Virus record (IMG/VR): IMGVR_UViG_2840619991_000006
Coordinates: 32,001 to 96,000 of that record
From: a virus
Taxonomy: Duplodnaviria > Caudoviricetes
Length of the DNA stretch: 64,000 nt
Reading direction: 5' to 3' (one strand)
The stretch's first letter is position 1. Each line of letters opens with the position of its first letter. Shown here piece after piece: positions 333 to 57,881 of the stretch. The notes under the pieces are model-generated. The model made no database searches and was not told the DNA's origin. It worked only from the letters and a program-made list of their open reading frames with translations. Both the position numbers and the translations under genes were made by a program.

Positions 333-833
333 TCAGGCCGACGCCTCGGCCCGGGGCTGGGTGACGTTTCCGGACACGTGCGGCGGTTCGGCCGCGTCCC
401 GAATTTCCCGGGCATGGTCCATGACGTTCTGCGCGGCACGGGCGATGCGGCGGCGTTCCTGCTGGTCGACGTGATCGTCGGCCAGGGCATTGTCGATTTC
501 CTTGGCGAGAGTCCCGGACTCGATGTCGAGGCGGACGAGCTGACGGGCAAAGTCCGTTTCCGGACGCTCGTCGCCCTGCAACTCGGCCAGCTTCGCCGCG
601 GTGATTTCCCGCATCACCTCGATGAAGACCGGCGACCTCCCTCTGGCGATCAACGCGGCGTCCAGCGCAGCGGCGTCGGCAAGTTCCAGGTCGGTGCCAT
701 CAAGCGGGTTGCTGGTCTTGCGGAACTTCGCCGCCGTGAGGCCGGTGGCCTGCCTGATCTCCTGTGGACTCAGTTCCTGGACGGCCTGACGCAGCGCATC
801 CTCAATGGAGCCGGGCTTTCGATAAACGGTCAT
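333..833 (-). CDS. Phage regulatory protein, CII-like (CP76 type)
   Basis: MTVYRKPGSIEDAL...ESGTLAKEIDNALADDHVDQQERRRI; typical CII-like C-terminus, downstream of cro. Confidence 0.7.
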   Translation of the reverse strand: MTVYRKPGSIEDALRQAVQELSPQEIRQATGLTAAKFRKTSNPLDGTDLELADAAALDAALIARGRSPVFIEVMREITAAKLAELQGDERPETDFARQLVRLDIESGTLAKEIDNALADDHVDQQERRRIARAAQNVMDHAREIRDAAEPPHVSGNVTQPRAEASA

Positions 834-892
834 CCAAAATAGCCCTTTCGATTGGACGTGACGCCCCGGCGTTGCTTCCGCACATTGGGGAC

Positions 893-1168
893 ATGACTGT
901 TCAGCTTCCGCTTCCCATTGCCGACGACACCGGCATCGCCACGCCCGTTCAGGGCAGCGCATCGCTCAGCACCGTGACGCTCGTTGACCGGGCCGCAGCG
1001 GAGGCGATCCGCGCGCTTGCTCGGCTGGCCGTGGTGGTGCCGCGAGATGAGGAGCGGGAGGTTTGGGCGATCAGCAGCAGCGTCGGCGCCCTTGCGCAGC
1101 GCATTGCCGATCGAGAAGACCGAGTGCCGGTGAACGGTGCTGTCGCCGCTGGCCGGCTGGAGGTGTGA
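893..1168 (+). CDS. Hypothetical protein
   Basis: ATG at 893 after GGGG, protein-like composition; competes with a minus-strand ORF. Confidence 0.35.
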   Translation: MTVQLPLPIADDTGIATPVQGSASLSTVTLVDRAAAEAIRALARLAVVVPRDEEREVWAISSSVGALAQRIADREDRVPVNGAVAAGRLEV

Positions 1169-1319: not shown

Positions 1320-1550
1320 TCAGGCCCCCGCCGCGAGGGTCAGCAGAAACGCAAGCCAGAGAGCGAGGAGACCGGCGAGCAGCGGCAGGATGGGTCCGGC
1401 GCTACCACGCGAGGAGTACCGCCCCACCCCGCATGCGCGCGTGACATGCCTCCCGCCTTCGAGGCACTCTTGACATGGTTCCAAATACTTGAAATCCGTC
1501 TTCAAGTTGTGCGCTGCCAGGATCTTGCTTGTGATGAAGCCCATGGTCAT
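1320..1550 (-). CDS. Small hypothetical protein with CxxC and C-terminal TM
   Basis: CQEC motif and hydrophobic tail; operon position after cro. Confidence 0.45.
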   Translation of the reverse strand: MTMGFITSKILAAHNLKTDFKYLEPCQECLEGGRHVTRACGVGRYSSRGSAGPILPLLAGLLALWLAFLLTLAAGA

Positions 1551-1608
1551 GGGTCACCTACTGCAATCAGATCAGCCGCGATACGGCACACCTCTTCTGT
1601 TTCGGTGA

Positions 1609-1884
1609 TCACTCGCCCCCTCCCTCTTGCTCAGGGGCGGACGGCAAAGAAAGCTTGGATGAGACTTCCTGTTCATCCAGGGCTTTGCTTTCCTGGAGCA
1701 GTTCGAAAAAGTCGTTTGGGGTCACCTCTCCTTTGGACGCGCAAAAGATGCGCGTCATCGCCGTCCAGCCCGGCTTGACCAGACCTCGGCGATACCGGCT
1801 GATCGCGGACTTATGGAGTCCTGCTTCTTGACCGAACTGCTCGTCAGTCAGGCCCCGGTTTTTTATGTGAGAAGAGAGATTCAT
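1609..1884 (-). CDS. cro: Cro-like HTH regulator
   Basis: MNLSSHIKNRGLTDEQFGQEAGLHKSAISRYRRG...KGEVTPNDF; divergent from repressor. Confidence 0.85.
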   Translation of the reverse strand: MNLSSHIKNRGLTDEQFGQEAGLHKSAISRYRRGLVKPGWTAMTRIFCASKGEVTPNDFFELLQESKALDEQEVSSKLSLPSAPEQEGGGE

Positions 1885-1893
1885 GTCCGTCAC

Positions 1894-1970
1894 GTTGCCA
1901 TCATTGCAACATGAGTTCAAGCCCGAAGTTGCCAAAGCTTCAACTGACGCGAAGTTGCAGCCATGGCAAC
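1894..1970. promoter_or_regulatory. Three 17-bp palindromic operators (OR-like), GTTGC-N7-(G/T)CAAC
   Basis: 1894-1910 GTTGCCATCATTGCAAC; 1928-1944 GTTGCCAAAGCTTCAAC; 1954-1970 GTTGCAGCCATGGCAAC, all in cro/cI intergenic space. Confidence 0.85.
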
Positions 1971-1978
1971 TTGTTGCA

Positions 1979-2356
1979 ATGAGTGACGAACAGCAAATAG
2001 CAGGCGCACGTCTCAAGGCGCTGCGCGAGGCCAAGGGATGGTCTCAAGAAAAGCTCGCCCAGGAAAGTGGGTTGGGCGACAAGACCCTTATGAGCAAAAT
2101 GGAACGTGGGCTAATTCGCCTCAACGATATAAAGCTGAGGCGTCTATCACAGGCTCTTGGATGTACCCCTGGAGATCTTCTCGCAGACGAGTCATACGAA
2201 CCAGCGCCACCGCATAAGGATGAAGACGAGGCTCTTTTCAACGAAGCTCGTCAGGTAATGTCAGACACTGAGTTAGATGACGTTCGCAGATACCTTCGAA
2301 TGCGAATTGAAATTGCCCGCGCACGACAATCATCACCGCCATCAAGAAAGTCCTGA
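1979..2356 (+). CDS. cI: CI-like Xre repressor, 125 aa, no S24 peptidase domain
   Basis: RLKALREAKGWSQEKLAQESG...MSKMERG...LSQALGCTPGDLL HTH; divergent from cro. Confidence 0.85.
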   Translation: MSDEQQIAGARLKALREAKGWSQEKLAQESGLGDKTLMSKMERGLIRLNDIKLRRLSQALGCTPGDLLADESYEPAPPHKDEDEALFNEARQVMSDTELDDVRRYLRMRIEIARARQSSPPSRKS

Positions 2357-2466
2357 ATATAATCAAGCACCAAGATTCGATCTTCACCCGATAGCGCTCG
2401 AAACATATCTAGCATTTCATCTTGATTTGCGCAGGCGATCTCCTCGTTCTTAAGCTCGCTCACCAT
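2251..2466 (-). CDS. Small ORF antisense to repressor 3' end; candidate antirepressor
   Basis: AAGGAG RBS; DEMLDMFRALSGEDRILVLDYIQ resembles the repressor C-terminal helices. Confidence 0.5.
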   Translation of the reverse strand: MVSELKNEEIACANQDEMLDMFRALSGEDRILVLDYIQDFLDGGDDCRARAISIRIRRYLRTSSNSVSDIT

Positions 2467-2580
2467 GCGGTCTCCTTATGACGCGGTCCCCGTGCGTGTC
2501 ATGGTTGGCCACCCTCAGGATAAAATGGCGAACGTGGGGATCATAACCAAGTAGAGGGACACAAACGCTTCTCAGGCAGT

Positions 2581-2608
2581 CGCCCCAGCCGCCGAAGCGA
2601 CCGGGGCG
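2581..2608 (-). terminator. GC hairpin after the accessory cassette
   Basis: CGCCCC...GGGGCG stem just past the stop at 2615. Confidence 0.4.
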
Positions 2609-2614
2609 CGGCGA

Positions 2615-3049
2615 TCAGGCTGCCAGCGGCTGGATGACCAACCAGCAACCGTCATTCGCTGCAAGCAGACCTTCTGCGATGGCTTCTTCGTAGGACGGAA
2701 GGTGGCGGCCAGCGTTGGCAAAGGCCGAGCGGGTGTTCTCCCACGCCTCCACGGCCTCTGGGCCGCTGGTGGCTGGGAACGGGTCGTGGACGATCACATT
2801 GCCAGCGCCGTAGAGTTCGGCACCGATCTTCAGCGCGCTGCGGGTGTCGAGGAGCACGGTGTGCAGCGCCACGTCAGCTAGATTCGGGACCGCGTACCTG
2901 CGGCCATGCTCATGGGCTTGGGCGTCGCCCAAGATAACCTTGACCTGTTGGAACGCCTCGTCGCGCTCCGCCTCGGTGTGGCCGAAGCGGCTCACCATCG
3001 CATGCTCATAACGGCTGAAATCAATCTCTGTGACGTTCGCGTAACCCAT
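2615..3049 (-). CDS. GRDP/DUF1399-like protein
   Basis: VPNLADVALHTVLLDTR...IVHDP matches the P-x-x-x-D-x-x-WH-x-x-IL-x-T...HH-x-P pattern in degenerate form; GAGGA RBS. Confidence 0.55.
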   Translation of the reverse strand: MGYANVTEIDFSRYEHAMVSRFGHTEAERDEAFQQVKVILGDAQAHEHGRRYAVPNLADVALHTVLLDTRSALKIGAELYGAGNVIVHDPFPATSGPEAVEAWENTRSAFANAGRHLPSYEEAIAEGLLAANDGCWLVIQPLAA

Positions 3050-3060
3050 TCTGTCGATCC

Positions 3061-4118
3061 TCATGATTTGCGCGTGATTGCGCGGGACATCGCTGCGATT
3101 TTTCCTACCAGCTTAGAAATTGCCGAGAGATCGTCAGCAGCGAAATCTTTCTGGCGCAGGCGGGCTTTCATCCCATCCTTCCCGTTGATTTGGTTGTAGA
3201 CGGTCCGTGGCGAGCTTCCCCGGATCTCACCGATGACCTCCGGAGACAAGCCGGCCCCAATCAGCGCAGCAACGTGGGCCTGCGCATCCGGCAAACCGAA
3301 AGCGGTCCGCAGGCTTGCAGCGACCGATTCAACGTCATCACCAAATCGGGCAACGACAAGGATCACCGTTCGCTCAAGCTCACCAGGAGCTATGGCCATC
3401 AGCAAGGGTTCGCCGCGAAGGCGTCGCAGGAAGACCGTTTGCGGCGCCCGGCTCCTTGCGACCGCGGCGATCGCCATCCGTAGTTCCTGCTCACCTTCGC
3501 TCATGATGGCTGTGACGTGTCCGGTCTCGTCCAGGCACACCCCGTCCCCCCGATCAGCGCATCACCGAAGCTGGAGTTGCCGTGGATCAGGACGCCGTCA
3601 TCGCGGCACAATGCGACAGCGAGGTCCAACGCATCGAGAGCTGAGCTGAGCCCGACCAACGCGCGGCGGAGCTTCGCAATCTCGAACAGATCCTCGCGAG
3701 TATCGACCGGTGGAAGGTATTGCTCGACAGCCAGGGATGGCAGGCCGACGCGGACCTGGACGCACGTTCCATCCGAGAGGCATAGATTCGATACCGCCAT
3801 GCGGCCGTGCTGGTAATCGCCGACCCACTGCAAACGCTCTCTTGCCCGCCGCTCTATCGTCTTACGCGCAAGATACGATACCGGGTCCCGATTGATTTCA
3901 GCGCTGGCCATCGCACCAGAATTCAGCACGCTCCAGAAAAGTGACGCATAAGTTTCCTTCAGATAATCTGAACATGGAAACATCCGAACCTGCGCTGTAT
4001 TCGCCCATGCTACTGCATCCTCTGGGGAATATACGAGAACAGCACCGCCAAATTCCTCAGCAGTGCTTATCATCACTGTCGCGGATGGCGGGAGACCGAT
4101 GGGGAACGCGTCTGGCAT
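3061..4118 (-). CDS. PAS-PAS-LuxR HTH transcriptional regulator (frameshift at the C6 run 3546-3551)
   Basis: PAS-like AVLVYSPEDAVAWAN and AVALCRDDGVLIHGN; LuxR-like LRTAFGLPDAQAHVAALIGAGLSPEVIGEIRGSSPRTVYNQI; adding one base joins the two ORFs into 352 aa. Confidence 0.75.
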
Positions 4119-4328
4119 GTCGTAACAATCATGCTGACTGGAGGCACAAAAGGAACGGTACGGCAGAGCATCGATATCGGCATGGTCAATTTTACACATG
4201 CCAGAGGGGTCAGAGCTTTTTCTGTAAAGATTGGATCGCCCGATGCACATACTGGAATATGATAAGGCCGCCGAACGCAGATGCATTCGACGGCCTACAG
4301 CGAATTAAGATTAGAAATATCGACTATA

Positions 4329-5261
4329 TCAAGCAGTAGCGGTTTCCCGGTGCGAAGCCCTTCCCTTCGCTGCTGAACCTGACTTCTCTGCAAAAGAGAG
4401 ATAGGTCGCGCTTGCAACGATCAATGCTGCACCAATCAGGTCTGCGCCGGTCATTTCCTTCCCGAACACTAACCATCCAACGATGGCTGTTGCCGGAAGG
4501 GTAAGATAATCAAAGCAAGACACGTAAGGCAGTGGTGCAGCAGCCAGCGCCTTCGCCGTTGCGATCTGCGATCCTGCGGCAAGAATTCCGACTGCAATCA
4601 GTCCAGCCAGGACCCAGCCCCCGATTTCGAACGGCACCCAAGCTCCGTAAGCAAGCGGCGCCATGCCGAGCGCCGAGGCGGCCATAAATACAAGAACGAT
4701 CAGGTGGGCTGGATTTGTCGACGTGAGCCGGCGTACGGCTGCCAGCGACACGGCGGAGAGCATAGCCCCTGCCAAGGCAGCGATGATGCCCAGGTCGAGC
4801 CCAACAGACAACGCCGGATAAACCGTTACGATGACGCCGATCAGCCCAGCCACCACGGCGGACCAGACCCGCCAAGACGCCCTCTCACCCAACAGCATCA
4901 TAGCGGCGCCCTGCATAAACAGGACTCGGCTCATCACGATCAGGTTGATAAGCGCAAGGTGTTGTCCGCTGGTCCAGGCGTAGAGGATGCAATAGCCCGC
5001 CAGCAGCCCGGTTCCGCACCGGATCGAAAACCACATCAGATTATTGATCTGACGCAGCTCAGCCAGGATGCTTCGACCGGAGAAAATGATGCCCACCGCA
5101 AGGGCGCCAAGCGCTCCGACCGAGCGGAAGAAGCCCAGTTGCTCAGCGGTAAGCCCATGGCTTGAAAGATACTTGGCGACCGCTCCACCAAAGGTGAACA
5201 GGAAGGCGGAATAGATCGCCCAAGCTGCTGCGTTTGGACGTTTAAAAAATGAAGGAAGCAT
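4329..5261 (-). CDS. EamA/DMT-family transporter
   Basis: About 10 TM segments in two repeats; LLGERAS and WLVFGKEMTGADLIGAALIV motifs. Confidence 0.9.
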   Translation of the reverse strand: MLPSFFKRPNAAAWAIYSAFLFTFGGAVAKYLSSHGLTAEQLGFFRSVGALGALAVGIIFSGRSILAELRQINNLMWFSIRCGTGLLAGYCILYAWTSGQHLALINLIVMSRVLFMQGAAMMLLGERASWRVWSAVVAGLIGVIVTVYPALSVGLDLGIIAALAGAMLSAVSLAAVRRLTSTNPAHLIVLVFMAASALGMAPLAYGAWVPFEIGGWVLAGLIAVGILAAGSQIATAKALAAAPLPYVSCFDYLTLPATAIVGWLVFGKEMTGADLIGAALIVASATYLSFAEKSGSAAKGRASHRETATA

Positions 5262-5294
5262 GCTGCGCCTCAAATGATTTTGTCTAGGCGAACA

Positions 5295-6005
5295 CTAAAG
5301 ATGATCGAGAATTTTTCTCCTCCTATCTTCGTATTCTTCTTTTGTTATAACCTTTCGTTCAAACATATCTTTCAGAGTTGATAAACGTGTTGCAGTGTTG
5401 GTAGGCGCGCTGGTCGTAGGCTTCGTTTGCGGATTTGGCTTTGGTGATTGCAGCTCTCCCACACGCGGGTCGTAGATTGAGTTTATGAACGGCACCAAAA
5501 CACTATTATCGCCTGGCCTCGCCATCGCCTGAAACAACTGAAGGCATTTATTTTCCATGTACATTTTTCCTAAGACATTGAATTTTCCGAACGCACTATC
5601 GGAGCGGCCACCATATTCAAGAATTTTTCGATTATTATCTGCATAGAAGTTATGACTTGTCATTACCCACTCGTCACCCCTATTAGATTGTTTCATAATC
5701 TCTAAAGCGATACTCTCTGTTGCCTTACCTAAGTCAAAGTTGTTTCCACAGAAGCAAGCTATCGCTCTTTGCTCATCAGCCGAAACTTGCTTAACCGCAT
5801 ATGCATTAATGCCTGAACTTGATACGCGGCCAGGGTCATTGATAATGTCTACAGGCCCATTTATCTGCGCACGCATCCGGCAATCTGCGGGAAACTTCTC
5901 CATTGCTTCAGATGCATCGATGTGCGACTTAGTAGTTTGACATGCCCCCAAGAGCACCAAAACCATAGAAGCCGCAAGCCGCGTGATTAGGATTAATTTT
6001 CTCAT
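5295..6005 (-). CDS. Lipoprotein with C-terminal SHOCT domain
   Basis: Lipobox LGAC; RLSTLKDMFERKVITKEEYEDRRRKIL; low GC. Confidence 0.8.
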   Translation of the reverse strand: MRKLILITRLAASMVLVLLGACQTTKSHIDASEAMEKFPADCRMRAQINGPVDIINDPGRVSSSGINAYAVKQVSADEQRAIACFCGNNFDLGKATESIALEIMKQSNRGDEWVMTSHNFYADNNRKILEYGGRSDSAFGKFNVLGKMYMENKCLQLFQAMARPGDNSVLVPFINSIYDPRVGELQSPKPNPQTKPTTSAPTNTATRLSTLKDMFERKVITKEEYEDRRRKILDHL

Positions 6006-6778
6006 TACAAATCCTCCAAAATTTTCCGACGCCTATCTTCATATTCTTTTTGAGAAACCAGATTGCGTTCTCGAAGATCCTTCAGCGTGGCTAAGCGCGC
6101 CTCAACTGAACTCCCCATTGTTACCAATGGCGCGCCTGCTGATTGCGGCCTCGAAACGGATAAGGCGGTAAGTTTTGGGTCGTCCAAGGCTTGGTCAATG
6201 GCGGCTTGCATACTATCGTTTATGATTTTCCTCAAGCCATCGACTTGCGAAACAAAGCTACCATCTTCCACACGATTATCCTCATAGACCTGAGAATACA
6301 ATTGCTGCCCTGTTGATTTATCGATTGCTTTTACATTAAACCTTGTATGCCCCTCACGGCGCATGAGTTGGTTTGAGTCCAATCGTTCAATGCTTACAAC
6401 AAGACCAATATACGCAACGTCAGTTTTTGCCAGCAATCCACGAGATTTTAATCCCTCGATGAATGCTTGTCGCACCATGTCATTTACCGGAGTTTTCGTT
6501 TCAAGTATCCAAAACGGGTTTCCATATCCCCCGCGAACAGTCCCAATTTTATTGGATGGATTCTTTCGAGCGTCGGTTACCGTTGATATTTCGACCATTG
6601 GAATAGCGCCGGTGGCGGCAATGGTTTGAGCAGCGGGCCGATACGTCAGGTCAGTCGGCGTCGTCCCGCATCCTGGTAAGCAAATAGCTACCGCACTTAA
6701 TACAAGCGCGCCGATTCCACTTTGCACTGAGAGCCCGCTTCGCACCGGCCTTCCATTCGACGAAAGTAGATGCCTCAT
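6005..6778 (-). CDS. YajG-like lipoprotein with C-terminal SHOCT domain
   Basis: Lipobox LPGC; VTDARK...IGTVRGGYGNP; RLATLKDLRERNLVSQKEYEDRRRKIL. Confidence 0.75.
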   Translation of the reverse strand: MRHLLSSNGRPVRSGLSVQSGIGALVLSAVAICLPGCGTTPTDLTYRPAAQTIAATGAIPMVEISTVTDARKNPSNKIGTVRGGYGNPFWILETKTPVNDMVRQAFIEGLKSRGLLAKTDVAYIGLVVSIERLDSNQLMRREGHTRFNVKAIDKSTGQQLYSQVYEDNRVEDGSFVSQVDGLRKIINDSMQAAIDQALDDPKLTALSVSRPQSAGAPLVTMGSSVEARLATLKDLRERNLVSQKEYEDRRRKILEDL

Positions 6779-6919
6779 CTTAAACAGCAAGAAGGGCCTA
6801 AGCCGCTGATGGCCGGCATCTCCAAAAACGGGCATTCTTCCTCCAGCGCATACAATAATATGCATTCATGATATCCAACACCACCATGGCGACTGTGACA
6901 CACACCCGCCGAGGCATCA

Positions 6920-6971
6920 GTTGCCAATTTTGCAACTTTCCACTTGACGCGCTGGTTGCCATCATGGCAAC
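6920..6971. promoter_or_regulatory. Two 17-bp operators (OL-like) flanking TTGACG; early operon promoter region
   Basis: 6920-6936 GTTGCCAATTTTGCAAC; 6955-6971 GTTGCCATCATGGCAAC; TTGACG at 6944-6949. Confidence 0.8.
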
Positions 6972-7140
6972 GTCCGTTATGTACCCCGCACGGTAGCGGT
7001 TCACACCACCACCCAAGGGGTACGCGCTTCCACGCTCCTTCGAGCGTTGGGCGTTTCCTCCTCAGACTGTGCCCGCCGGTCGAGCCGGTCGGCGGGCACC
7101 TTCTCAGGGCGGAGCGCAGAATCCGGAAGAGGACACCGCC

Positions 7141-7335
7141 ATGGGCCAGCCTGCCCGCCGCACTGCTGACGTTGACCAAGAGTTTCTTACCGCCTGCCGC
7201 TCGGTCGTTGCGCCGGTGCTGGAGCGAGCGGCACAGGACATGGGCGTGGTGGACGAGGCCCGGCATCTCTGGGCGATCAGTTCGCCGATCCCGCCCAGCC
7301 AGAAGGGCAGGGCGGGGCATCCCGCAACGACCTGA
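7141..7335 (+). CDS. Phage early hypothetical protein
   Basis: GAGGA RBS, high GC3, first gene of early operon. Confidence 0.6.
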   Translation: MGQPARRTADVDQEFLTACRSVVAPVLERAAQDMGVVDEARHLWAISSPIPPSQKGRAGHPATT

Positions 7336-7454
7336 CCGCTCCCCTCCCCTTCCCGATCCCCAGCCCCTTACCCGCGTCGATCCCGCGGGTGGGGCATGAG
7401 GCGTTGAAGACGGCCCCATCCGGCCCGGCCAACCACCAACATCAAGGATCACCG

Positions 7455-10120: not shown

Positions 10121-11856
10121 TGGCCGACTTCCGCCCGAACCGCGACCGCACCGACCTCCCCGCCGACGCCGAACGCTGCGCCACCATCTGCGCGCGCTTC
10201 CACCGCGGCATCGCCGCGAACTGCTTCGCGCGTGGCCTGACGCATGTCGGTCGCCGTCACGAACAGATCGCTGACCGGCTGGTCGCCCTCCGGAAGCCCA
10301 CCTCGATCACCATCCTCACCGCGCCGACGGCCGAGACCAAGAAGCGGAGGGCCGCATGATCGCCCTGCCTTTCTGCTCCGGCTTCAAGATCGGCGACCGC
10401 GTCAAACACGCCAGCGAGCTCGTCACGCTGCCGGCGGCGCAGATCGACCGGCTCAGCCCCTGCAGCAACGGCGTCGTCTTCGCCGAGACGTCGAGCTGGA
10501 GCGCTCCGGTGGATCGCATCCGCTTGGCCGGGCCGGGCTTCGCCGGGATGGTCAACGGTGGCGCCGCCGCCCTTCCGGTCGGAGGTGCCGCGTGACCAAG
10601 AAGCTGAACGAGCCGGAAATCTACTTCGTCGGCCAGAACGAGGTCGGCCCCCGGCACCCGACCGCCGGGTTCTACGTCGCGCCGCTCACCGCGGCGGGGC
10701 GTGCCGAAGGACCTTTCGCCAGCCGTGACCGGGCGGAAGAGTTCGCGCGAGGCCGGTCCATGGATCTGAGGGTGGCGTGATGGTTTCCCAGGACGCCATC
10801 GCCACCACGACCGCCATCGGCGCCGCTCTGCGCCAGCATGCGGACCGGGACGGCTACGTGCCGGTCGCCGCGCTGCGAGAACGGTTCCCGGTCGAGGTGC
10901 TGGCCGCTCATCTGCTGCCGGCTCTGGCACAGGTGAACCGGCACCGCGAAGCGGTGGGAGGCTGAACACTATGGCCGCGCGCTTCCGCTTCTACGCCGAC
11001 TTCACCGACAAGTGGGGCGAACTCCAGACCATCAACGTGCTGGCGGATTCGGCTGAAGATGCGGTGCGCCGCCTGCGCTGGGATGCCGGCAATTTCGCCA
11101 AGAATTTCAAGTTCCGCCCGGATTGGGACCTGATCGTCTTTGACGACGGGACGCTGATGCTCCGGACGGAGTGGGAACAGTTCAGGCGCCGGCAGGAAAT
11201 GCCGGCTGCCGCTGCGGAGTGAACCAGATGCCCAAACCTCCCTCCCCGGCGCAACTCGCCGCCCAGGTCGAGACCTGGAACAGCCAGAACCCTGTCGGCA
11301 CCAAGGTGGTCGTCCGCTGTGACGACGGCACCAGCCACATCACCGTCACGACCAGCGAGGCGTGGGTGCTGAGCGGCCACAGCGCCGTCATCCTGCTCAA
11401 GGGCATCTCCGGTTGTTACCTGCTGAATCGGGTGACCGCGATCAGCGCCGACCACACGGTGGAGCCCTGACCGCAATGGCCGCCACCTCCCAACACCACC
11501 ACGCCACGGTCTTCGAAAACCGCATCAACGGCAACGTCGTCGCCTCCGCCCAGGTGGTGATCTCCTTCAGCTACGCCGCCCTGCCCTCCCCTGCCGGAGC
11601 ACCCCTCGGCGGTACCGTGACGTTCCTCGGCGCGGACATCGTCTGCGGCCCCGGCACGTCGATCCGGAAGACCCGTCCGGCCCCACCTCACATCGATATG
11701 TGGGCCAAGCGCTACACCGCGGCGAACGCCGCCATCCTCATCGCCGAAGCGACGGCTGACCACGTGCCGCAGCAGTGCGGCGCCGGCCCTCAGAAGCTGC
11801 CGGTCGCTTCTCCCCACACCATCCCCTCCCCTGCCCTTCTCCAACACGGAGCCTGA
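10117..11856 (+). CDS. Run of seven small phage early genes (10117-10359, 10356-10595, 10592-10780, 10777-10965, 10971-11222, 11228-11470, 11476-11856)
   Basis: ATGA/GTGA overlaps or short gaps, GAGG RBSs, consistent codon bias. Confidence 0.65.
11802..11820 (+). repeat. Isolated copy of the replication iteron
   Basis: GGTCGCTTCTCCCCACACC identical to 30436-30454. Confidence 0.7.
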
Positions 11857-11861
11857 ATCCC

Positions 11862-12389
11862 ATGAACGCCATCTCCCGCCGCCTTTCCGCCGTATCGCCC
11901 CCCTGCACCAGCATGAGCGTGCCCAAGCGCGGCCGCCGCGCCACCGGGCGCCCGCTGCACAGCGAGGCCCCGAACCCCGTCGATATCCATGTCGGCGCCC
12001 GCGTCCGGCTGCGTCGCACCCTGCTCGGCATGTCGCAGGAGAAGTTGGGCGACGCCCTCCGCCTGACCTTCCAGCAGGTACAGAAGTACGAGCGCGGCGC
12101 CAACCGCATCAGCGCCAGCCGGCTGTTCGACCTTAGCCGCGTCCTGGACGTGCCGATCTCCTTCTTCTTCGACGACATGTCGGAGGCGACCATGGCGGCG
12201 GCGCCGGCGGAGGAGGTGTGCGCCTCCGGCATCGAAGCCGCCGAGCCGGACCCGATGGCCAAGCGGGAAACGCTGGAGCTGGTGCGCGCCTATTACCGCA
12301 TCCCCGATGCCGCGGTGCGCAAGCGCCTCTTCGAAATGACCAAGGTGCTGGGCAAGACCGGCGGCGACCAGTCCGGCGCCGAGGCCTGA
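11862..12389 (+). CDS. PraR/PhrR-family Xre regulator
   Basis: NPVDIHVGARVRLRRTLLGMSQEKLGDALRLTFQQVQKYERGANRISASRL...RETLELVRAYYRI. Confidence 0.9.
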   Translation: MNAISRRLSAVSPPCTSMSVPKRGRRATGRPLHSEAPNPVDIHVGARVRLRRTLLGMSQEKLGDALRLTFQQVQKYERGANRISASRLFDLSRVLDVPISFFFDDMSEATMAAAPAEEVCASGIEAAEPDPMAKRETLELVRAYYRIPDAAVRKRLFEMTKVLGKTGGDQSGAEA

Positions 12390-27736: not shown

Positions 27737-27777
27737 GTTTAATCGATTAAACTCCGGCCCGGTTTAATTGATTAAAC
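27737..27777. promoter_or_regulatory. Two 16-bp palindromes; candidate partition site
   Basis: GTTTAATCGATTAAAC (27737-27752) and GTTTAATTGATTAAAC (27762-27777) at the end of the par operon. Confidence 0.55.
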
Positions 27778-28447
27778 CAGCAAGCTCATCGTCGATTTTC
27801 TGGATCTCCAGAAGCAGCTTCGCGCGTCGCGCTTCCAGTTCCGCACGGCGCGTGGCATTCGACGGCGCTGGACCGCGCAAGGCCTTCCAGAACTGCCGAA
27901 CCTCGGACTGCCGAACGTCCGGGCGCAGCAGACCGCGCTCGGCCGCCTGCCGGCGTTCTTCATCTGATAGCCGGGCCAGCATGTAGACCGTGCCGTAACC
28001 TGCCGCAGCCACCTCCACCGGCACCACGTTGTCGCGGATCGCGCGATAGGCGCTCATGAGCTGGGAACGGGCCGACTTCCCGAAGCGACGGTTCAGTCCA
28101 TCGTACAGCGCCGCCCGGTCCTCCTCGCTCAGTCGGGTTTCTGCGATGGACAGCAGCTCTCCGATCCGAAGGAACCGCTGCTGAGCGTCTTCCCACAGTT
28201 CCGAGATCCGGTTGATGAACTCGTCAACGGTCTGCGGAATCCGTCCCTCCGGAAGGGGAGGGAACACGTCGCCGTCCAACGCTTCGACCATCGGCGGGGG
28301 AGGGGGCTCGACCGGCGCGGCGACGGTGTTCATCACCGTTGTCAGGTAGGCCGATTGAGCCAGGGAGGGCGGGGCCTCCTTCGGCTTCCGAGCCCGTGGC
28401 TTCCGCACCACCTCGAAGTCCTTGCCGGCGACCTTCTCTTTAGCCAC
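27764..28447 (-). CDS. ParA partner protein, DUF3102-like
   Basis: Overlaps parA stop; FLRIGELLSIAETRL...SARSQLMSAY...YGTVYMLARL. Confidence 0.65.
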   Translation of the reverse strand: MAKEKVAGKDFEVVRKPRARKPKEAPPSLAQSAYLTTVMNTVAAPVEPPPPPMVEALDGDVFPPLPEGRIPQTVDEFINRISELWEDAQQRFLRIGELLSIAETRLSEEDRAALYDGLNRRFGKSARSQLMSAYRAIRDNVVPVEVAAAGYGTVYMLARLSDEERRQAAERGLLRPDVRQSEVRQFWKALRGPAPSNATRRAELEARRAKLLLEIQKIDDELAGLIN

Positions 28448-29084
28448 GGAAGGTCTCCAGCAGGGCGAGGGCCTCGGCGCCGATGGCTTCGATGTCGTCG
28501 GCCATGGCGGAGTAGGGCGCCGGCTTCTGCGCGAAGCTGGCGTGGTTGATCGAAGCCTTCAGCCCGAGATCCGCCTTCAATGTCGGGATCGACAAGCCTT
28601 CGAGTTGCTTCCGGGCGATCTGGTCCACCGAGGCCCGGCGATCAACCTGCGACAGGACGGCGGCCGCGGGGATATGCGCCTTCGGGGAGAACCGCCGTGC
28701 CTTCGTGATCGCGTTCACGACGTGCTGATAGGTGCGGAACGCCTCCACGACATCCTTCGCGTCGGCCTTGGTCGGGATCAGCACCAGCGACGAGATGTCG
28801 ATCGCATTGACCAGCGCCGTGCTGTTGGCGCCGGGGACATCGACCAACACGAAGTCGTGGCTGGCGGAGACCTCATTCGCGACCTGAACCAGATCATCGG
28901 CCTGGACGATCCGGAACTCGACCATCCCGGTTGCGGCGAGCCACCCGCTCAGGTTCTTGTTCGGGTCGGCATCGATGCAGAAGACAGACGCCCCCCGGCG
29001 CTTGAGAAATTCGGCAAGCGCGTTGACAAGCGTGGTCTTGCCGACGCCGCCCTTGCTGCTGCCAACAGTGATGATTCGGCCCAT
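28440..29084 (-). CDS. parA: ParA partition ATPase (short type)
   Basis: KGGVGKTT, IDADPN, DFVLVDVPG. Confidence 0.92.
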   Translation of the reverse strand: MGRIITVGSSKGGVGKTTLVNALAEFLKRRGASVFCIDADPNKNLSGWLAATGMVEFRIVQADDLVQVANEVSASHDFVLVDVPGANSTALVNAIDISSLVLIPTKADAKDVVEAFRTYQHVVNAITKARRFSPKAHIPAAAVLSQVDRRASVDQIARKQLEGLSIPTLKADLGLKASINHASFAQKPAPYSAMADDIEAIGAEALALLETFRG

Positions 29085-29191
29085 TCCAACCTCTGCCGGT
29101 TTGGCCGGACGTCGCGTGAAAGGTCGCGATCGGTACCGGTGAAATTCGGCTGAGGGTGCGCGATAGGGGAGGGCGGCGTCAAGAAGCGATG

Positions 29192-29229
29192 GGTGTGGGG
29201 TTAGGCGACCGGTCGCTTTACCCCACACC
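29192..29229. repeat. Inverted pair of iterons between repA and parA
   Basis: GGTGTGGGGTTAGGCGACC followed by GGTCGCTTTACCCCACACC. Confidence 0.75.
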
Positions 29230-29230
29230 G

Positions 29231-30157
29231 TCACGCGGTCAAGCGGGCAATCGGAGGCCGGCTCGGATGGAGGATGAACCCTTCGTCAGCCCCCTCGACC
29301 TTGGCGCCGGGGTAAGCGGCAAGGGCGTACTGCATGGCCTGGACGAAGCGCGGCTTGAAGTGCTTCATCTGGTCATAACCGGCGCCGAACTGGCCGTAGA
29401 GGGACGCCCAGGTGATCGGCTGCGGCTTCTGGAGCGAGTGCAGGCGGTAGGCGAGCCAGACATAGAGGTCCAAGCTCAGGCTGCGATCCTTGAGCTGGCG
29501 AATAGCTTCCTCCAGCAAGGGGACTGGATGATCCTGGAGAGCCTGGAAGAACGTCTCGTCAAGCTGGACCAGATCTTCCCAAAGAGAGCCTTGCCGTTCA
29601 TCGGTGGCGTTGTCATGGAAGATCAGGCCGCGCTTGACGATGCCGCCTTTCTCGAACGCATCGGCTTCGGCACCATCCCAGAAGAATTTCAGGCCACATG
29701 CAGAGATGCGAAGGGACTGTTCCCGGAAGCCTTTGAAGGTTTCCCCGCCGACGCTTATCCCCATGCGGGTCAGCCAGTCTCGCATCGAGCGCCCGAGCTC
29801 GACTTCGCGGCGCCCGGTTCGAATCGCTTGTGTCTGGAGGTAGATCAAAATCATGCGGGCTCGGGCGCCGTAGGGGACGCCGAACAGCTTCATCTTGCCG
29901 TTGACCTTTAACCGGCCTGGCTCGACAAGCAGCGTCACCTGATGGCCGCGCTTTTCCCAAGGGGCATCGTCGGCGAGCTTCTTGTGTGGCAGACTGGTGA
30001 GGCAGAAGCCGGAGTAGGTGATGCCCAGGTTCTGGCGGTCATCGGCGAGGATTTCGGCGGCGATGTCGACCAGTGGTCGATCTTCCGGACGCACCATGGC
30101 CCGAGCGACTTCGCGCCCGTGCTTGATGACCAGTTCGTGTATATCGCCCATGACCAT
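29231..30157 (-). CDS. repA: Plasmid replication initiator (RepA_C family)
   Basis: FCLTSLPHK, GVPYGARARMILIYL, LSLDLYVWLAYRL, ITWASLYGQFG. Confidence 0.92.
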   Translation of the reverse strand: MVMGDIHELVIKHGREVARAMVRPEDRPLVDIAAEILADDRQNLGITYSGFCLTSLPHKKLADDAPWEKRGHQVTLLVEPGRLKVNGKMKLFGVPYGARARMILIYLQTQAIRTGRREVELGRSMRDWLTRMGISVGGETFKGFREQSLRISACGLKFFWDGAEADAFEKGGIVKRGLIFHDNATDERQGSLWEDLVQLDETFFQALQDHPVPLLEEAIRQLKDRSLSLDLYVWLAYRLHSLQKPQPITWASLYGQFGAGYDQMKHFKPRFVQAMQYALAAYPGAKVEGADEGFILHPSRPPIARLTA

Positions 30158-32614: not shown

Positions 32615-32899
32615 GTGAGCATTCAATGCCGGTGCCTCCTCATCCGTGAAGGAGAGGCACCCATCTGGAGCGAGAAGGGGTTCCGCTTGCCACCAAGTAG
32701 GGGCGACGGTGTTCAGTTCGAGGAAAATGGAACGCCATTCACGTTCCAGGTCACGGAGATCCTGCACACGCTATCTCTGGATGGTGTGGATTTCGCGCTG
32801 ATCCTCACCGAAGTGCCTGGGTCACGGGGCAAGCCATTCCGGGTATTGTTCGAAGATCAAGCCCGCACCACCGGCACGTCGTCCAGCTCCGTCGTGTAG
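32615..32899 (+). CDS. Hypothetical protein
   Basis: GGAG RBS, GTG start. Confidence 0.4.
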
Positions 32900-34131
32900 G
32901 AGGGCGACCGGCTGTCCTGGCGCATCCGCCAAGCCCGGCCGATGGTAGCCGCCGGCACCAGCGTGTCCCGGCCCATCCGGCTGTTGATCGCGTCCATCGC
33001 CGCCATGAGCCGGGCGCCGCGCGCCCGATCGGCAGCGGCCAGAAGGTCCGGCTGCACCTTGGTCACCGGCACCAGCCCGGTCAGGATCACCCCGGCCTTG
33101 GACATGGCGAACCCGTCGCGCCAGATCCGTTTTGCGCCGGCCGTCGCCGCAGCGATCAGCGCGAAGGTGTCGTCGGTCGCCGGCCGCAGTTCGACGGTCG
33201 CTGCGTTGCTGTAGGTCGGGCCTGGCCGGAAGGGGCTGGTGTGCATGAAGACCTGGAGGGCTTCGGCGGCCAGCCTTTCGGCGCGCAACTTCTCCCCGGC
33301 CCTGGTGGCGTAGGACGCCACCGCCTCCCGCATCGGTTCCCACTCCGTGACCGGCGTCCCGAAGCTGCGGGTTACCGCCGTCGTCTTGCGCGGCGCCGGC
33401 GCCTGATCGAGCGGCAGGCAGGACAGCCCGCGCAGCTCGTAGACGATTCGCTCCCCGACCACGGTCAGCACCTGCCGGGCGCGCCGGGGCTCCATGTCGC
33501 GCAGATCCGCCGCGGTCTTGACGCCCAACATGCCCAGCTTCTCGGCGCTGCGCCGGCCGATCCCCCAGACGTCCTCGACCGGCACCACGCGCAGCACATG
33601 CTCGCGCTCCGATTCGCGGCCAAGGTCGCAGACGCCACTGTCGTCCAGCAGCGCCTTCTTCGCGGCATGATTACTGACCTTGGCGAGCGTCTTGGTCGGC
33701 CCGATCCCGACGCAGGTCGGAATGCCGGTCCACCTTCGGACCGTCGCTCGGATCTCTGCGGCATAAGCCAGCAGGTCCCGGCCCTCGAAGCCGCTCAAAT
33801 CGAGGAACGACTCGTCGATGCTGTAGACCTCCAGCCGCGGGGTAAAGCCGCGCAGGCAGTCCGTCACCCGGGCCGACAGGTCGCCGTACAGCGAGTAGTT
33901 GGAGGACAGCACCCGCACCCGATGTTGGCGGACCAACTCGCGCACCTCGAACAGTGGCTGGCCCATCTTCACGCCCAGGGCCTTCAGCTCGGCAGACCGG
34001 GCGACGAAGCAGCCGTCGTTGTTGCTCAGCACGCCGACCGGGACGCCTTCGAGCCGGGGATCGAAAACCCTTTCGCAGCTCACGTAGAAATTATTGCAGT
34101 CCACCAGTCCGTAGACCCGCGGCGGCGCCAT
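32857..34131 (-). CDS. umuC: Y-family DNA polymerase V subunit UmuC
   Basis: [31 protein letters not shown]. Confidence 0.95.
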
Positions 34132-34136
34132 GGCTG

Positions 34137-34565
34137 TCAGCGCCGATGCAGGCGGATGGTGCTCGTGATCACGCCCCAGATTTCAAATTCGGGCCGGTCG
34201 GTGACCTCGACCGGACGGTATGCGGTATCATCCGAGTCCGGCACCAGCCACACGCGGGCACCACGCTTCAGCAGGCGCTTGCACGTCAGTTCGCCATCCA
34301 GCACCGCGACAATCACGTCATCGTGACGCGCGGTCAGCGACCGATCGACAATGGCGAGGTCGCCATCATGGATGCCAGCGCGGACCATGGAATGACCGGA
34401 GACGCGCAAGGTGAAGGTGGCGGAAGGGTGGGGGACCAGCACCTCGGCGAGATCGATCCGGCCTTCCACGTAGTCCGCCGCGGGCGACGGGAATCCCGCC
34501 GGCACCACGGCCTCGACAGACACGACCGGGCATGTCCGCATCACTATCGGCTCTGGCACCTGCAT
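34137..34565 (-). CDS. umuD: UmuD S24 autopeptidase
   Basis: VPAGFPSPA cleavage site, SGHSM, TCKRL. Confidence 0.93.
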
Positions 34566-34612
34566 GCTCCCCTCCACCCGCCTGACCTTGTTGGGAGGAT
34601 GGCGCGGGAAAA

Positions 34613-48796: not shown

Positions 48797-51700
48797 CAGC
48801 CTTGCCTTCCGTTGACCTTCCGGGCGGTGTCTTCGGTGGCGTCAGCCACGCGGACGAGCAGCCTCGCCATCTCCTGCGCGATGGCGGCCCGCTGCTCCTG
48901 GTCCATGCCCTCGTTGCGCTCCAGCCGGCGCTCCAACCGCTCGATGGCCTGCCGAAGCAGGCGAAGCTCGACGACGGCACGGTCGTCGCCACCCGACCGG
49001 CCCGGCGCCGGGGCGTAGTCCTGCCGGCGGATCGGCGCGATGTTCGACGCCCAGCGGTCGTTGGCCGGCGGCTCCACGCCGGTCGGGTAGACGTAGCCCG
49101 CCGCCCCGAAGGTCACCTTCTCCGGCCCGAACTCGCCCACGATGTAGCTGCGCCCGGCCTCGACAGGACCGCCCGCCGCACGGACCCCGACACCGCCAAG
49201 CCGCTCCGCGGTCGTGGCCGTGTTCCAGACCACCTTTTGACCATCGGCGTTGCCGGCATAAATCAGCAGGCCGATCGCGTTGAGCTGGGCCAAGTTGTTG
49301 TTGATGCCCGCATTGATGCTGGTGAGGATGCCGGACAGCTTGTCGTCGATGCTGCGGCTGATCTGCACCGTCTCGGTGGTCTCCACCGTCTGCGTCACCG
49401 TCCGCGTGATCGTGCCTCCGGGCACCAAAACGGCCCCGGTTGCCGGGTCGATCTGCTGACCAATCACGCGCTGCACCGATCCGGGCAGGATGATCGCGGC
49501 TTGCTCAGCGGGGTCAGGCTGCGACCGAGCGACTGTTCGACGCTGCGGATCACGCTGCCACCGACAATGATGCCGTCCAGCTCCGCGGCAGTGAGGTCGC
49601 GCCCCATTGCCTGTTCGATGATGCGCAGGATCTCGCCACCCGGAACCATCGCGGCGCGCTCCGCGGCGGTCAGATCACGCCCCATCTCCTGCTCAATCGA
49701 CCGCTCCACCACCCCGGCGGTGACGAGGCTGACAAGCTCAGCATCGGTCAGGAAGCGGCCCATGCGCTCCTCGACCGTCCGCAGCACCGTCGCGGTTTGC
49801 GTCAGCTTGGCCTTGTCGGCATCGGACAGCGCCGAAAGCTGCTCGGTGATGACCCGAACCGTGGTGAGTTCGACCTGGACGTTGACGGAGCCGCCGAGCT
49901 TCCGAAGCTCCTCCAACATCTGCTGGTCATAGCTCTTGGTGGCCGGCAGGTTTTCCAGGCTGGACATCACCCACGCCCGCATCGCCTGCGTCTCGGCGCC
50001 CGAGGCCGTCAAAGCCTCCTGCGACGACAGCAGCCGGTCAGCGGCACCTGTCAGGCGACCATAGGCGTCCACGTCGCCGCCGCGGGCGAGCGCCAGGTCA
50101 CGGGCGAATTGCGCCTGCGCCGCGTCCCGCGCATCCTGAGGGGAAACGCTGGTGCCGGCGGTGGCGTTCTTCTGGTCCAGCCAGGAGCGCACGCTGCCGC
50201 CCGCGGCGACCTGCGCCTTTCTCTGTTCGGCAAGCGCGGCTTCGGCGGCGGACTGCTTCTCTATGGCCTGGACTTCAAGCAGGCGCGCCCGCACCGTCGC
50301 GTCCGTTACCGCTGCCAACTCCTTGCTGTGTTTCAGATCGAGCTGATACCGGTCGTATTCCTCCTGTGAAAGCTGCCCCAGCGAAACTTGAGCGGCCTTG
50401 TACCGCTGATCGAGGTCGCCCATCGCAGCGGCCATCGCGATGTCGCGGAAGTAATTCGCCCAACTGACCATCACATCATCGACGCCGCGGAAGGTGGCCA
50501 TCACATCGTTCAACTGGTCGACACTGAGCCCGCTAAGCGTCTGGCTGACACGGGCGGCGTAGAGGTCGTTGGGATTCCGGCCAGCCGCCAGCATGTCCGT
50601 GGCGTTCTTGTTCCACCATTCCCGGACCCCGGCGAGTTCGTCGATGTAGCTGCGGCCCTGCGCCGACCGCAGGTTGGTGTCGAAGACCTTGGCCGTCTCC
50701 TCGTTCAGCCGCTTCAGCGCATTCTTCAGGCCCTCGCCGAGCTTCTGGGTCAGCAGGTCGCCCTGGTAGCCCACCGCCTCCATGGCCCGCACGAGGTCGG
50801 TGGAGGCGGTGGACCAGTAGCCGGTGAGCTGCGCCACCTGCTTCTGGTAATCGGTGCTGGTGTCCGTGACCCCGGCGATTTCCGCGTCGATACGGGCCTT
50901 GGCGGCGACCAGGGCCAGCATCCGCTTTTCAGCGGCTTCCAGGGCCGCCGGCACCTGCATGCCAGCGGAGGACATCGCCGCCATCGACTTCACCATGTCG
51001 TCGGCGAGGGCCTGGAAGTCCTTCCCGACCGCCGAGAAGGTGCCATCGGCAAGGCTCTGGACGACGCCCATCACCTCGCCGTACCGCTCGACGCTCAGTC
51101 CGTGCTCGCCGAGCGCCGAATTGAACAGGCGCTCGGTCGCCTCGCGCTTCTCGGTGGCCGGGGTGATGCCGAGCGAGCGAGCGTAGGCGTTGGACTTCTC
51201 CAGCGCCTGCCGCAGCACGTCGGGAATCGCCACGCCCGCAGCGGCAAGGGACTGCACGGCGGCGTCCAGGTCCTCCGTCAGTGCCCCAACCTTGGCGGCA
51301 CCCCAACCACGCACGGCGTTCAGGTAGGCGTCAGAGTGCCTACCGGCGATCTGTTCGACGGTGTACCCGGTGGTCCCAGCTTCAAGCCCGCCCACCATGC
51401 GGTCGCCGACCACGCCGTTCGGGTCGGCCTTGATGGCGTCGAGCAGCTTGGTCAGCACAGCATCGGCCGCCGCGAAATCACCACCGGTCGGCGACATGCC
51501 AGGGTTCCCCGGCCCAGCCACCGCCGGGGCATCACCAGGACCGAACACCGAGGCGATTCCTTTTCCCATGGCCTCGGCAAAACCACGGATGCCGCCGATG
51601 GCGGCGGTCCCGGTGATGCCGACCATGCCGCCGAGAATGCCAGCCTCCTTCGCATCCAGCCCAAGGGCGGTGGCGACTGTGCGGCCCAGGTCGCTGATGG

Positions 51701-57700: not shown

Positions 57701-57881
57701 TCTGGCGCTGGAAGATCTCCGCCGCCGAAGCGCCTTTCCCGAGAGTCGCGCTGTAGCGGTCCATGGCCGACATGCTGCTGTTGGCGGACCGGTCGATGTC
57801 CTCCAGCGAGCGGCGGACGACGCGGGCACCTTGTTCAACACCGGACGGATCAACAGCAACGGAGAGGACTGCATCGACCAT
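48796..57881 (-). CDS. Tape measure protein with SLT transglycosylase domain (frameshift at G4 run 49510-49513)
   Basis: NLSYQIQDLGVQLVSGQSPFMAIAQQGPQ (TMP_2 type); VIQKESTWNPNA...AGLMQVMP...YDPAQNIEAG; about 3028 aa when joined. Confidence 0.92.

Follow-up and report, generated by a model that had tools for sequence, protein, structure and literature searches.

The DNA analysed here, a stretch of 64,000 nucleotides that we call the window, comprises bases 32001–96000 of a 116,159-base IMG/VR provirus record (IMGVR_UViG_2840619991_000006). In this Azospirillum-type temperate phage, between the cI-like repressor gene and the left operator lies a block of minus-strand genes (2251–6778), which we interpret with moderate confidence as accessory cargo occupying that slot. 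The block includes a cassette of three genes, predicted to encode an EamA-family transporter, a tandem-PAS regulator with a LuxR/GerE-type helix-turn-helix (HTH) domain, and a small partner protein. Our best reading, in which belief and doubt are about balanced, is that this cassette is mobile, self-regulated, ligand-sensing cargo, which would most likely give the lysogen a sensing and transport trait. The block as a whole would be a mosaic of two lipoprotein genes, the cassette travelling among Azospirillum phages and integrative islands, and a 71-amino-acid (aa) open reading frame (ORF), a composition that we consider about evenly supported. The cargo interpretation rests on the position of most cassettes away from cI/cro genes and on the classic divergent regulator–transporter layout seen elsewhere, together with the foreign base composition of the block, the apparently unrelated addition of the lipoproteins, and the broken regulator. 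The initial annotation of this region had proposed a self-contained, signal-controlled lysis/lysogeny module. The regulator is broken in this copy, and we consider a role for the cassette in phage induction doubtful.

The block contains the following features, in coordinates of the window.

2251–2466, minus strand: acidic 71-aa ORF; its last 106 nt are antisense to the cI 3' end, and AAGGAG lies 5 nt before its ATG
2467–2614: spacer of 148 nt that separates the partner gene from the 71-aa ORF, without the regulator palindrome, a predicted terminator or a sigma-70-type promoter
2615–3064, minus strand: partner protein ORF, 149 aa, or 144 aa from a conserved Met at 3049; its ATG overlaps the regulator stop (ATGA)
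3061–4118, minus strand: tandem-PAS one-component regulator with LuxR/GerE-type HTH; frame broken at a run of six C (3546–3551)
4181–4200: 20-nt AT-centred palindrome, CATGTGTAAAATTGACCATG (minus strand), 63–82 nt upstream of the regulator start; probable operator
4329–5273, minus strand: EamA-family (drug/metabolite transporter, DMT) protein; Pfam EamA (PF00892) 44.4 bits against a cut-off of 28.2, in two stretches
5295–6005, minus strand: SHOCT lipoprotein, 236 aa; C-terminal SHOCT (PF09851) 28.4 bits against a cut-off of 27; G+C ~0.45
6005–6778, minus strand: YajG-type lipoprotein, 257 aa; Lipoprotein_16 34.2 bits against a cut-off of 25; SHOCT-like tail

As the initial annotation had stated, these genes form a same-strand set on the minus strand that converges on cI, which is on the plus strand. 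The closest relatives of the cargo genes were from Azospirillum. The block is compositionally foreign, with a G+C content of 0.40–0.48 in the lipoprotein genes and 0.50–0.66 in the remainder, compared with ~0.67 outside it. A blastn search of plasmids with 1500–7100 gave no match, and promoter and terminator scans across 1500–7400 returned hits at chance level only.

The cassette in other genomes and phages

The regulator and partner genes were consistently found together. In a survey of 130 genomes from Azospirillaceae, the family of A. tabaci, partner homologues occurred at 14 loci in 12 genomes. Each of the 14 was immediately preceded, on the same strand, by a full-length member of the regulator family (one copy was split), and in most cases the stop codon of one gene overlapped or nearly touched the start codon of the next. 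The two genes were also paired at both metagenome loci and in Azospirillum phage Cd, and all three regulator paralogues of A. tabaci, found with a wider profile, had a partner-type neighbour. One further genome of a 401-genome class sample carried the pair, and nine more distant partner-like genes in that sample stood without the regulator.

The transporter was a frequent third member. A gene of the same EamA subfamily adjoined the cassette at 8 of the 14 genome loci, at one of the two metagenome loci (L053), and in phage Cd, while none lay next to it in locus L003. Cassette-adjacent EamA genes elsewhere were 36%–42% identical to that of the window. In five genomes tested, the cassette EamA gene was the best match in four and the second-best in one, with E values of 1e-36 to 1e-42 versus <=1e-23 for nearly all other EamA genes. 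The initial description of this gene as an EamA exporter is thus borne out at the level of the family by its Pfam score. At the eight genome loci, the EamA gene was 36%–40% identical to that of the window and always divergent from the regulator, as it also was in L053, so that this layout characterizes 9 of 17 cassette loci. GerE-type regulator ORFs of ~100–240 aa were found just downstream of the partner at 8 of the 14 genome loci and in L053 (all four that were scanned, of 189–215 aa, matched GerE). No cI/cro pair was recognised at the loci with a divergent EamA gene and extra GerE ORFs.

Several cassettes lay near integrase genes, identified by Pfam at two loci (L026 and L027). In five more loci, a shared protein of 430–490 aa was found near the cassette, which formed a cluster and was read by eye as a tyrosine integrase.

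The two loci with Pfam integrases (in genomes G013 and G019) are small integrative elements that carry the regulator–partner pair without EamA. By Pfam, L026 also encodes a DnaA_N/RP-C-like replication protein and a DUF2786/DUF7168 protein, and L027 has an excisionase-like HTH gene, read by eye. GCGC-rich palindromes (TTGCGCTATAGCGCAA) precede the gene that adjoins the regulator on its upstream side.

A protein search of a phage collection with the regulator gave a match in Azospirillum phage Cd (NC_010355.1). The genes of Cd are arranged as gp01 (EamA, plus strand), gp02 (regulator, plus strand), gp03 (hypothetical, plus strand), and gp04 (HTH regulator, minus strand, converging), followed by an unannotated cro-like ORF on the plus strand and then by early and replication genes. 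The same three genes are therefore present in the same order and orientation as in the window, converging on the repressor-like gp04, with identities to the window of 42% for EamA, 34%–43% for the regulator, and 35% for the partner. No lipoprotein pair precedes EamA in Cd. The initial annotation did not recognise this gene combination from described systems, but it was already in the published Cd genome, where gp01–gp03 are annotated as unknown and as similar to pRhico093-091 of A. brasilense, with gp02 as one intact gene.

The regulator

The assignment of the regulator as a PAS-PAS-LuxR protein, made initially from the translated sequence, holds at the level of family and fold. No Pfam PAS or GerE match was found in the two regulator pieces of the window or in the intact homologue P0001, scans of the pieces against Pfam, NCBIfam, PHROG and PADLOC returned nothing usable, and the IMG/VR scan gave no relatives. 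With an exhaustive HMMER search we obtained 150 relatives at E<=1e-3, 32 of them at E<=1e-10. We aligned 49 proteins (alignment A1), namely P0001, P0002, and 47 of the near-full-length matches listed, and among these 18 matched PAS_8, 12 matched PAS_4, and 17 matched GerE. The A1 profile matched HTH structures of the LuxR/NarL/FixJ type (E 1.8e-8, profile positions 277–340) and, at E ~1e-3, the structures 6ide, 6kju and 6ugl, which we take to be VqmA chains.

The predicted structure agreed with this assignment. An AlphaFold model of P0001, rather than of the broken window copy, had a mean predicted local distance difference test (pLDDT) score of 91.5 and consisted of two PAS domains and a C-terminal HTH, with the two alpha/beta PAS-like modules at residues 1–114 and 129–245. 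In Foldseek, the top matches of this model were the tandem-PAS proteins DosP, PpsR, FixL and NifL (E 3e-8 to 1e-6), and phage VqmA-DPO (7dwm_A) appeared at rank 48 (E 3.2e-5).

In the window, the gene is divided between two frames at the six-base run, which is G6 on the coding strand. The record aligns to an intact homologue in two pieces, covering residues 1–180 and 174–337. Intact homologues of 337 aa in A. aestuarii and A. tabaci, ~85% identical, read through the break point. Judged against other members of its family, the gene has its true start at 4118 (MPDAFPIG...). Because the frame is broken at the G-run, the circuit in this copy is probably off, unless the break is a sequencing error.

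The partner protein

The partner belongs to a small family with a few strongly conserved positions. A word-based search found three close homologues only, and direct scans of the 149-aa protein against Pfam, NCBIfam, PHROG and PADLOC gave nothing usable. In an alignment of 16 members (A3), residues D59, H63 and H88 were invariant, lying within the motifs 'ADxALHxLLLDT' and 'HDP', and a nearly invariant Cys was found near the C-terminus, 9–20 residues before a terminal Ala-Ala. This Ala-Ala was present in 15 of the 16 members and in Cd gp03, which ends in ...CWLVIHKAA compared with ...CWLVIQPLAA in the window. In alphaproteobacteria, a terminal Ala-Ala is a ClpXP-type degradation signal. The conserved end, which may be either a tag for degradation or a tail that is processed, hints that the partner is short-lived.

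The initial annotation had called this gene GRDP/DUF1399-like and a possible maker of the signal. The label has a basis in the ESM Atlas, where the partner lies near UCP032817-like and GRDP-like clusters (feature scores 0.92–0.93, template modelling [TM] scores 0.70–0.72). It found none in the GRDP-like family PF07173, which matched 0 of 16 partner-family members at E<=1; PF07173 also had no match in the record at E<=10, a search in which control genomes gave none either. As the ESM Atlas is the only source of the GRDP/UCP032817 label, we treat it as a lead, not as a result. The literature on DUF1399 and GRDP, among the matches listed, comprised plant papers and unrelated uses of the abbreviation. 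A fold predicted for the 149-aa protein from three sequences was poor (pLDDT 56). Nothing points to signal synthesis, and we do not retain that role for the protein.

The probable operator of the regulator

An AT-centred palindrome upstream of the regulator is probably its operator, judging from its conserved position and its uniqueness. A near-identical palindrome is present in A. tabaci, where the surrounding spacer no longer aligns with that of the window. At eight other loci the regulator is preceded, at a distance of 70–78 nt, by AT-centred palindromes particular to the locus (ATGGAAATTTCCAT and GTGCAAAATTTTGCAC are examples); in Cd such a palindrome lies 48 nt ahead of the start annotated for the regulator. 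The palindrome of the window occurs once in the window at <=3 mismatches and is single at <=5 mismatches in the whole 116-kb record; the A. tabaci locus and the first 58 kb of Cd likewise have one copy each. No copies were found before the 71-aa ORF or near the phage operators described below. Since the palindrome is unique in the record, the direct phage target of the regulator, if this is its operator, would be its own operon only.

A second conserved element was observed at seven other loci (L029, L030 and L033–L037). It is ~35 nt long with an internal inverted repeat (GTCACAAATTTC..CTCGTTACAG..GTGAAATTT) and lies ~380 nt upstream of the regulator, beside the divergent EamA gene, and it may regulate that transporter gene as a second site. 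It was not noticed in the window, where EamA begins 21 nt after the lipoprotein gene, though no search was aimed at it.

These features suggest how the cassette could work. The regulator would take a small ligand into its PAS domains, and as a dimer it would bind the 20-nt palindrome and drive its own operon, consisting of regulator and partner. The transporter may move the ligand or a related metabolite. The conserved His/Asp motif and the C-terminal Ala-Ala are consistent with a possibly short-lived partner that would either act as a modulator of the regulator or have the ligand as its target. Any effect on lysis and lysogeny would come through what the promoter produces downstream, whether the partner, the 71-aa protein, or transcription antisense into cI.

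The lipoproteins and the 71-aa ORF

Genes at the two ends of the block appear to be separate from the cassette. The initial annotation had described two SHOCT lipoproteins as members of the proposed module. Both are lipoproteins, and the protein at 5295–6005 has a signal peptide with a Cys lipobox, read from its sequence, as well as a SHOCT domain above the cut-off. The SHOCT tail of the YajG-type protein (scanned as 6005–6865) scored 20.2 bits, below the cut-off of 27. Homologues of the YajG-type lipoprotein were found in 13 of the 130 Azospirillaceae genomes at 40%–48% identity, and more weakly in two more, most of them without the SHOCT tail; a tblastn search against phages gave no match. 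We read this gene as separately captured host-type cargo.

The 71-aa ORF overlaps the cI 3' end by 106 nt, as noted initially. Pfam, NCBIfam, PHROG and PADLOC scans gave no family match for it, and no relatives were found in IMG/VR. Its single homologue, P0155, is also 71 aa long and is 72% identical without gaps, and over the 43 residues outside the cI overlap the two are 56% identical, again ungapped. No counterpart was present at other cassette loci searched, including L054 and Cd, and the two lipoprotein genes were likewise at no other cassette locus searched. The lipoproteins and the 71-aa ORF are therefore outside the conserved set, and the initial inclusion of these genes in one module was not upheld.

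Two ideas about the 71-aa ORF were considered and rejected. An ORF of Cd at 3029–3295 was considered as its positional counterpart but has no similarity to it. The 71-aa protein was also considered as a mimic of the cI C-terminal helix, in the manner of SinI and SinR, but BLASTP gave RRYLR alone, and this is the same overlap DNA read on both strands, for which reason the idea was rejected. The overlap at 2262–2310 encodes RRYLR on each strand, in cI as ...VRRYLRMRIEIARAR and on the antisense strand as ...RARAISIRIRRYLR, a curious codon palindrome that makes the BLASTP match spurious.

The immunity region

The block lies within a lambdoid immunity region, in which repeated operators flank the repressor gene and cI is divergent from cro and cII. 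We searched for the operator motif GTTGC-N7-GCAAC (pattern GTTGCNNNNNNNGCAAC, <=1 mismatch) and found eight matches in the window, compared with 2.69 expected. Five of the eight, including all four exact matches, sit in two clusters. From this clustering we conclude that the block is bracketed by genuine OR-like and OL-like operators, as the initial annotation had proposed. The features of the region are as follows.

333–962, minus strand: cII-like gene, by family match
1609–1884, minus strand: cro-like HTH gene, 91 aa; HTH_3 at E 3.4e-4 and 21 bits, below the cut-off of 23
1894–1970: OR-like operator cluster with three GTTGC-N7-GCAAC sites (1894–1910; 1928–1944, with one mismatch; 1954–1970)
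1979–2356, plus strand: cI-like repressor gene, 125 aa; HTH_31 and HTH_3 at E ~1e-10, PHROG transcriptional repressor families
6920–6971: OL-like operator cluster with two exact sites (6920–6936 and 6955–6971), before the plus-strand early-left operon

The cro-like gene heads a leftward-reading operon that continues into cII and replication genes, and it is homologous to a cro-like ORF on metagenome contig L054 (E 3.6e-6). The cI-like protein would be 157 aa long if it started at 1883. By Pfam it matched HTH families and, below threshold, DUF6893, and the S24 autocleavage domain (Peptidase_S24) was absent, unlike in lambda-type cI, in agreement with the initial description of a 125-aa repressor that lacks S24. 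Relatives of cI were limited to 38%-identical HTH segments in the IMG/VR scan and to generic HTH similarity (37%–48%) in the 130 family genomes, and neither search with cI found a phage of matching immunity type. The OL operators lie 142–193 nt upstream of the start of the YajG-type lipoprotein gene, so occupancy by cI could affect a promoter of the cargo.

A possible role in phage induction

The main alternative, to which we give tentative weight, is that the cassette provides an SOS-independent input to the lysis–lysogeny switch. The ligand-bound regulator would activate its own operon, and the output, which could be the partner, the 71-aa protein, or antisense transcription over the cI 3' end, would lower cI activity, with EamA setting the level of the ligand.

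Several observations weigh against cargo alone and favour this alternative. On the circular map of Cd, the cassette lies between a leftward operon (exonuclease and integrase) and the repressor gene, which is the slot it occupies in the window, and its position and orientation are the same, with EamA, regulator and partner converging on gp04 and a cro-like ORF beyond. We compared 21 Cd proteins with the record. Beyond the cassette, the cI, cro and six other early proteins of Cd had no similarity to the proteins of the window or to the record, and ten further proteins yielded just a weak HTH match and a match to part of one tail protein (by blastp and tblastn, used because tblastx was swamped by high-G+C noise). 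On contig L054, the gene toward which regulator and partner read is cI-like (HTH_3) and has a cro-like gene diverging from it; the A. tabaci pair faces an XRE gene in the same converging way, within an integrase-bearing island. Such convergence on repressor-type genes need not appear for pure cargo. The cI-like proteins of the window, Cd and L054 are only 22%–32% identical, so the pair is found beside dissimilar repressors.

Inactivation of the repressor is a further point on this side. No ImmA-type protease, Bro-N/ANT antirepressor or S24 repressor was found in the 116-kb record, whose sole S24 protein is UmuD-like and adjoins a Y-family polymerase. The phage therefore needs another way to inactivate cI, which keeps a function of the cassette in induction under consideration. 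There is no predicted terminator between the partner gene and cI. The 71-aa ORF is probably a real gene, since its 72%-identical homologue has the same length and frame, and it has a strong ribosome-binding site. The resemblance of the regulator fold to phage VqmA and the presence of many other copies on integrative elements, whose activation could be under the control of a LuxR-type sensor, are also consistent with a switch.

The evidence on the other side is drawn mainly from the window itself and from the wider distribution of the cassette. The regulator is frameshifted in this copy. The initial annotation had envisaged a small antirepressor under control of the regulator, in the manner of VqmA and Qtip, but the 71-aa ORF is downstream and co-oriented, unlike the ORFs of known pairs of a transcription factor and a small ORF (TF-smORF), and the palindrome is absent before it and elsewhere in the record; that proposal is not supported. 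The ORF also has no counterpart in Cd or L054. At 9 of 17 loci EamA is divergent, and the loci with extra GerE ORFs downstream (8 of the 14 genome loci and L053) have no recognised cI/cro pair. Cd carries a separately annotated anti-repressor (gp43), and three shared orientations out of three are weak statistics. The expected co-occurrence beside phage repressors was thus seen in part, with EamA, regulator and partner in Cd and with regulator and partner in L054, but most cassettes lie away from cI/cro genes. It had been proposed that the idea would fail if the genes never co-occurred or sat in non-phage contexts. They do co-occur, in both phage and non-phage mobile contexts, which leaves a mixed answer.

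The most specific form of the alternative is that the cassette is a small-molecule-gated activation switch common to unrelated Azospirillum temperate phages and islands. Its own operon would run antisense into the repressor gene, the short-lived partner would act as co-activator or antirepressor, and the transporter would set the ligand level. We consider this form speculative. If true, it would add an induction input that does not depend on SOS and is built differently from both VqmA-Qtip and TF-smORF modules.

Decay and defence as alternatives

It is unlikely that the cassette was gained by illegitimate recombination and is eroding without function, leaving the lipoproteins as the sole working cargo. 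The frameshift in the window regulator would fit such decay, as would a second split copy (L023/L038) and the non-canonical orientation of EamA in the window relative to the nine divergent loci. However, apart from the frameshift, which may be a homopolymer miscall, all three genes are full length and 81%–85% identical to intact homologues in A. tabaci and A. aestuarii, and Cd shows the same non-canonical orientation with intact genes.

A defensive function, in which the envelope lipoproteins and perhaps the transporter shield the lysogen from other phages while the regulator tunes their expression, is very unlikely: genes for superinfection exclusion and defence commonly occupy the interval between cI and OL, and two envelope lipoproteins head the same-strand set in just that position, but no cargo protein matched a PADLOC family, the lipoproteins were never linked to the cassette at other loci searched, and the YajG-type lipoprotein had no match in the phage collection.

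Comparison with known systems

The cassette and the block around it resemble several described systems in part. In phage lambda, rexAB lies between cI and OL/PL. The block shares with rexAB the placement of accessory genes of foreign base composition between the repressor gene and the left operator, but its genes read toward cI from the opposite strand, with their own regulator and a probable operator.

The regulator can also be compared with LuxR-type receptors that have a protein partner. TraR-TraM is one such pair. RhlR-PqsE, mentioned in PMC10432266, is another. In these systems, as apparently in the cassette, a LuxR-type HTH regulator gene is tightly linked to that of a small protein that does not bind DNA (at 14 of 14 genome loci here), although the partner in the window is from a different, uncharacterised family.

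Among phage systems, the likeness to VqmA-phage and Qtip of VP882 is that of a phage-encoded one-component receptor with PAS and LuxR-type HTH domains in a regulatory region. The family in the window differs in having two PAS domains rather than one, with a sequence relation to VqmA confined to the HTH. It also differs by lacking a counter-oriented small gene under the operator of the regulator, and by having a coupled partner of 144–149 aa and a transporter, neither of which VP882 is known to have.

In TF-smORF modules, the smORF is counter-oriented, lies ~150 nt upstream of the TF gene, and is directly activated by the TF (Silpe et al., Nature 2023, PMC10432266); these modules include two-protein activators of XRE and LuxR types. 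Compared with that account, the window likewise has a transcription factor gene beside a small ORF in a temperate phage, and it would be SOS-independent in concept. It differs in that the 71-aa ORF is downstream and co-oriented, 148 nt past the partner gene, without a copy of the operator, and is not conserved with the cassette.

Phage one-component sensors that decide between lysogeny and lysis have so far been found mainly in plasmid-like phages of Vibrio and Aeromonas. Here, a different sensor lies in the immunity region, with two PAS domains and a LuxR-type HTH, always with a partner and often with EamA. Phage Cd is cultured and genetically accessible and bears the cassette, so its function is directly testable in a plant-growth-promoting bacterium. 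Even if it is only cargo, the cassette represents a conserved mobile regulator–partner pair, and, should the label of the partner hold, it gives a first bacterial genomic context for GRDP/UCP032817-like proteins.

Other features of the record

The early operon reads on the plus strand from ~7069 and includes genes for RecT (at 13151), RNase H (16409) and a methyltransferase (24095). It also encodes a second XRE-type HTH protein of 204 aa (11775–12389, plus strand; HTH_3 at residues 78–131). A replication protein and DnaB helicase are encoded to the left of the window, and the right end of the record carries portal and adaptor genes. The search for a tyrosine integrase across all 116 kb gave nothing. 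A gene for plasmid-type RepA (RepA_C, E 3e-28), followed by a gene for a ParA/ParF-like ATPase (E 1.7e-10 to ParF), lies at 27764–30157 on the minus strand. Given these genes and the lack of a tyrosine integrase, the provirus may be a phage-plasmid or may reside in a plasmid.

The UmuD-like S24 protein (146 aa) is encoded in a umuDC-like pair at 32857–34577 (minus strand), beside a 424-aa gene that matched a PHROG DNA polymerase family and was read as Y-family, in a region of mixed strand and lower G+C. Farther along, a tape-measure protein of 2805 aa with an internal SLT transglycosylase domain is encoded at 49464–57881 on the minus strand.

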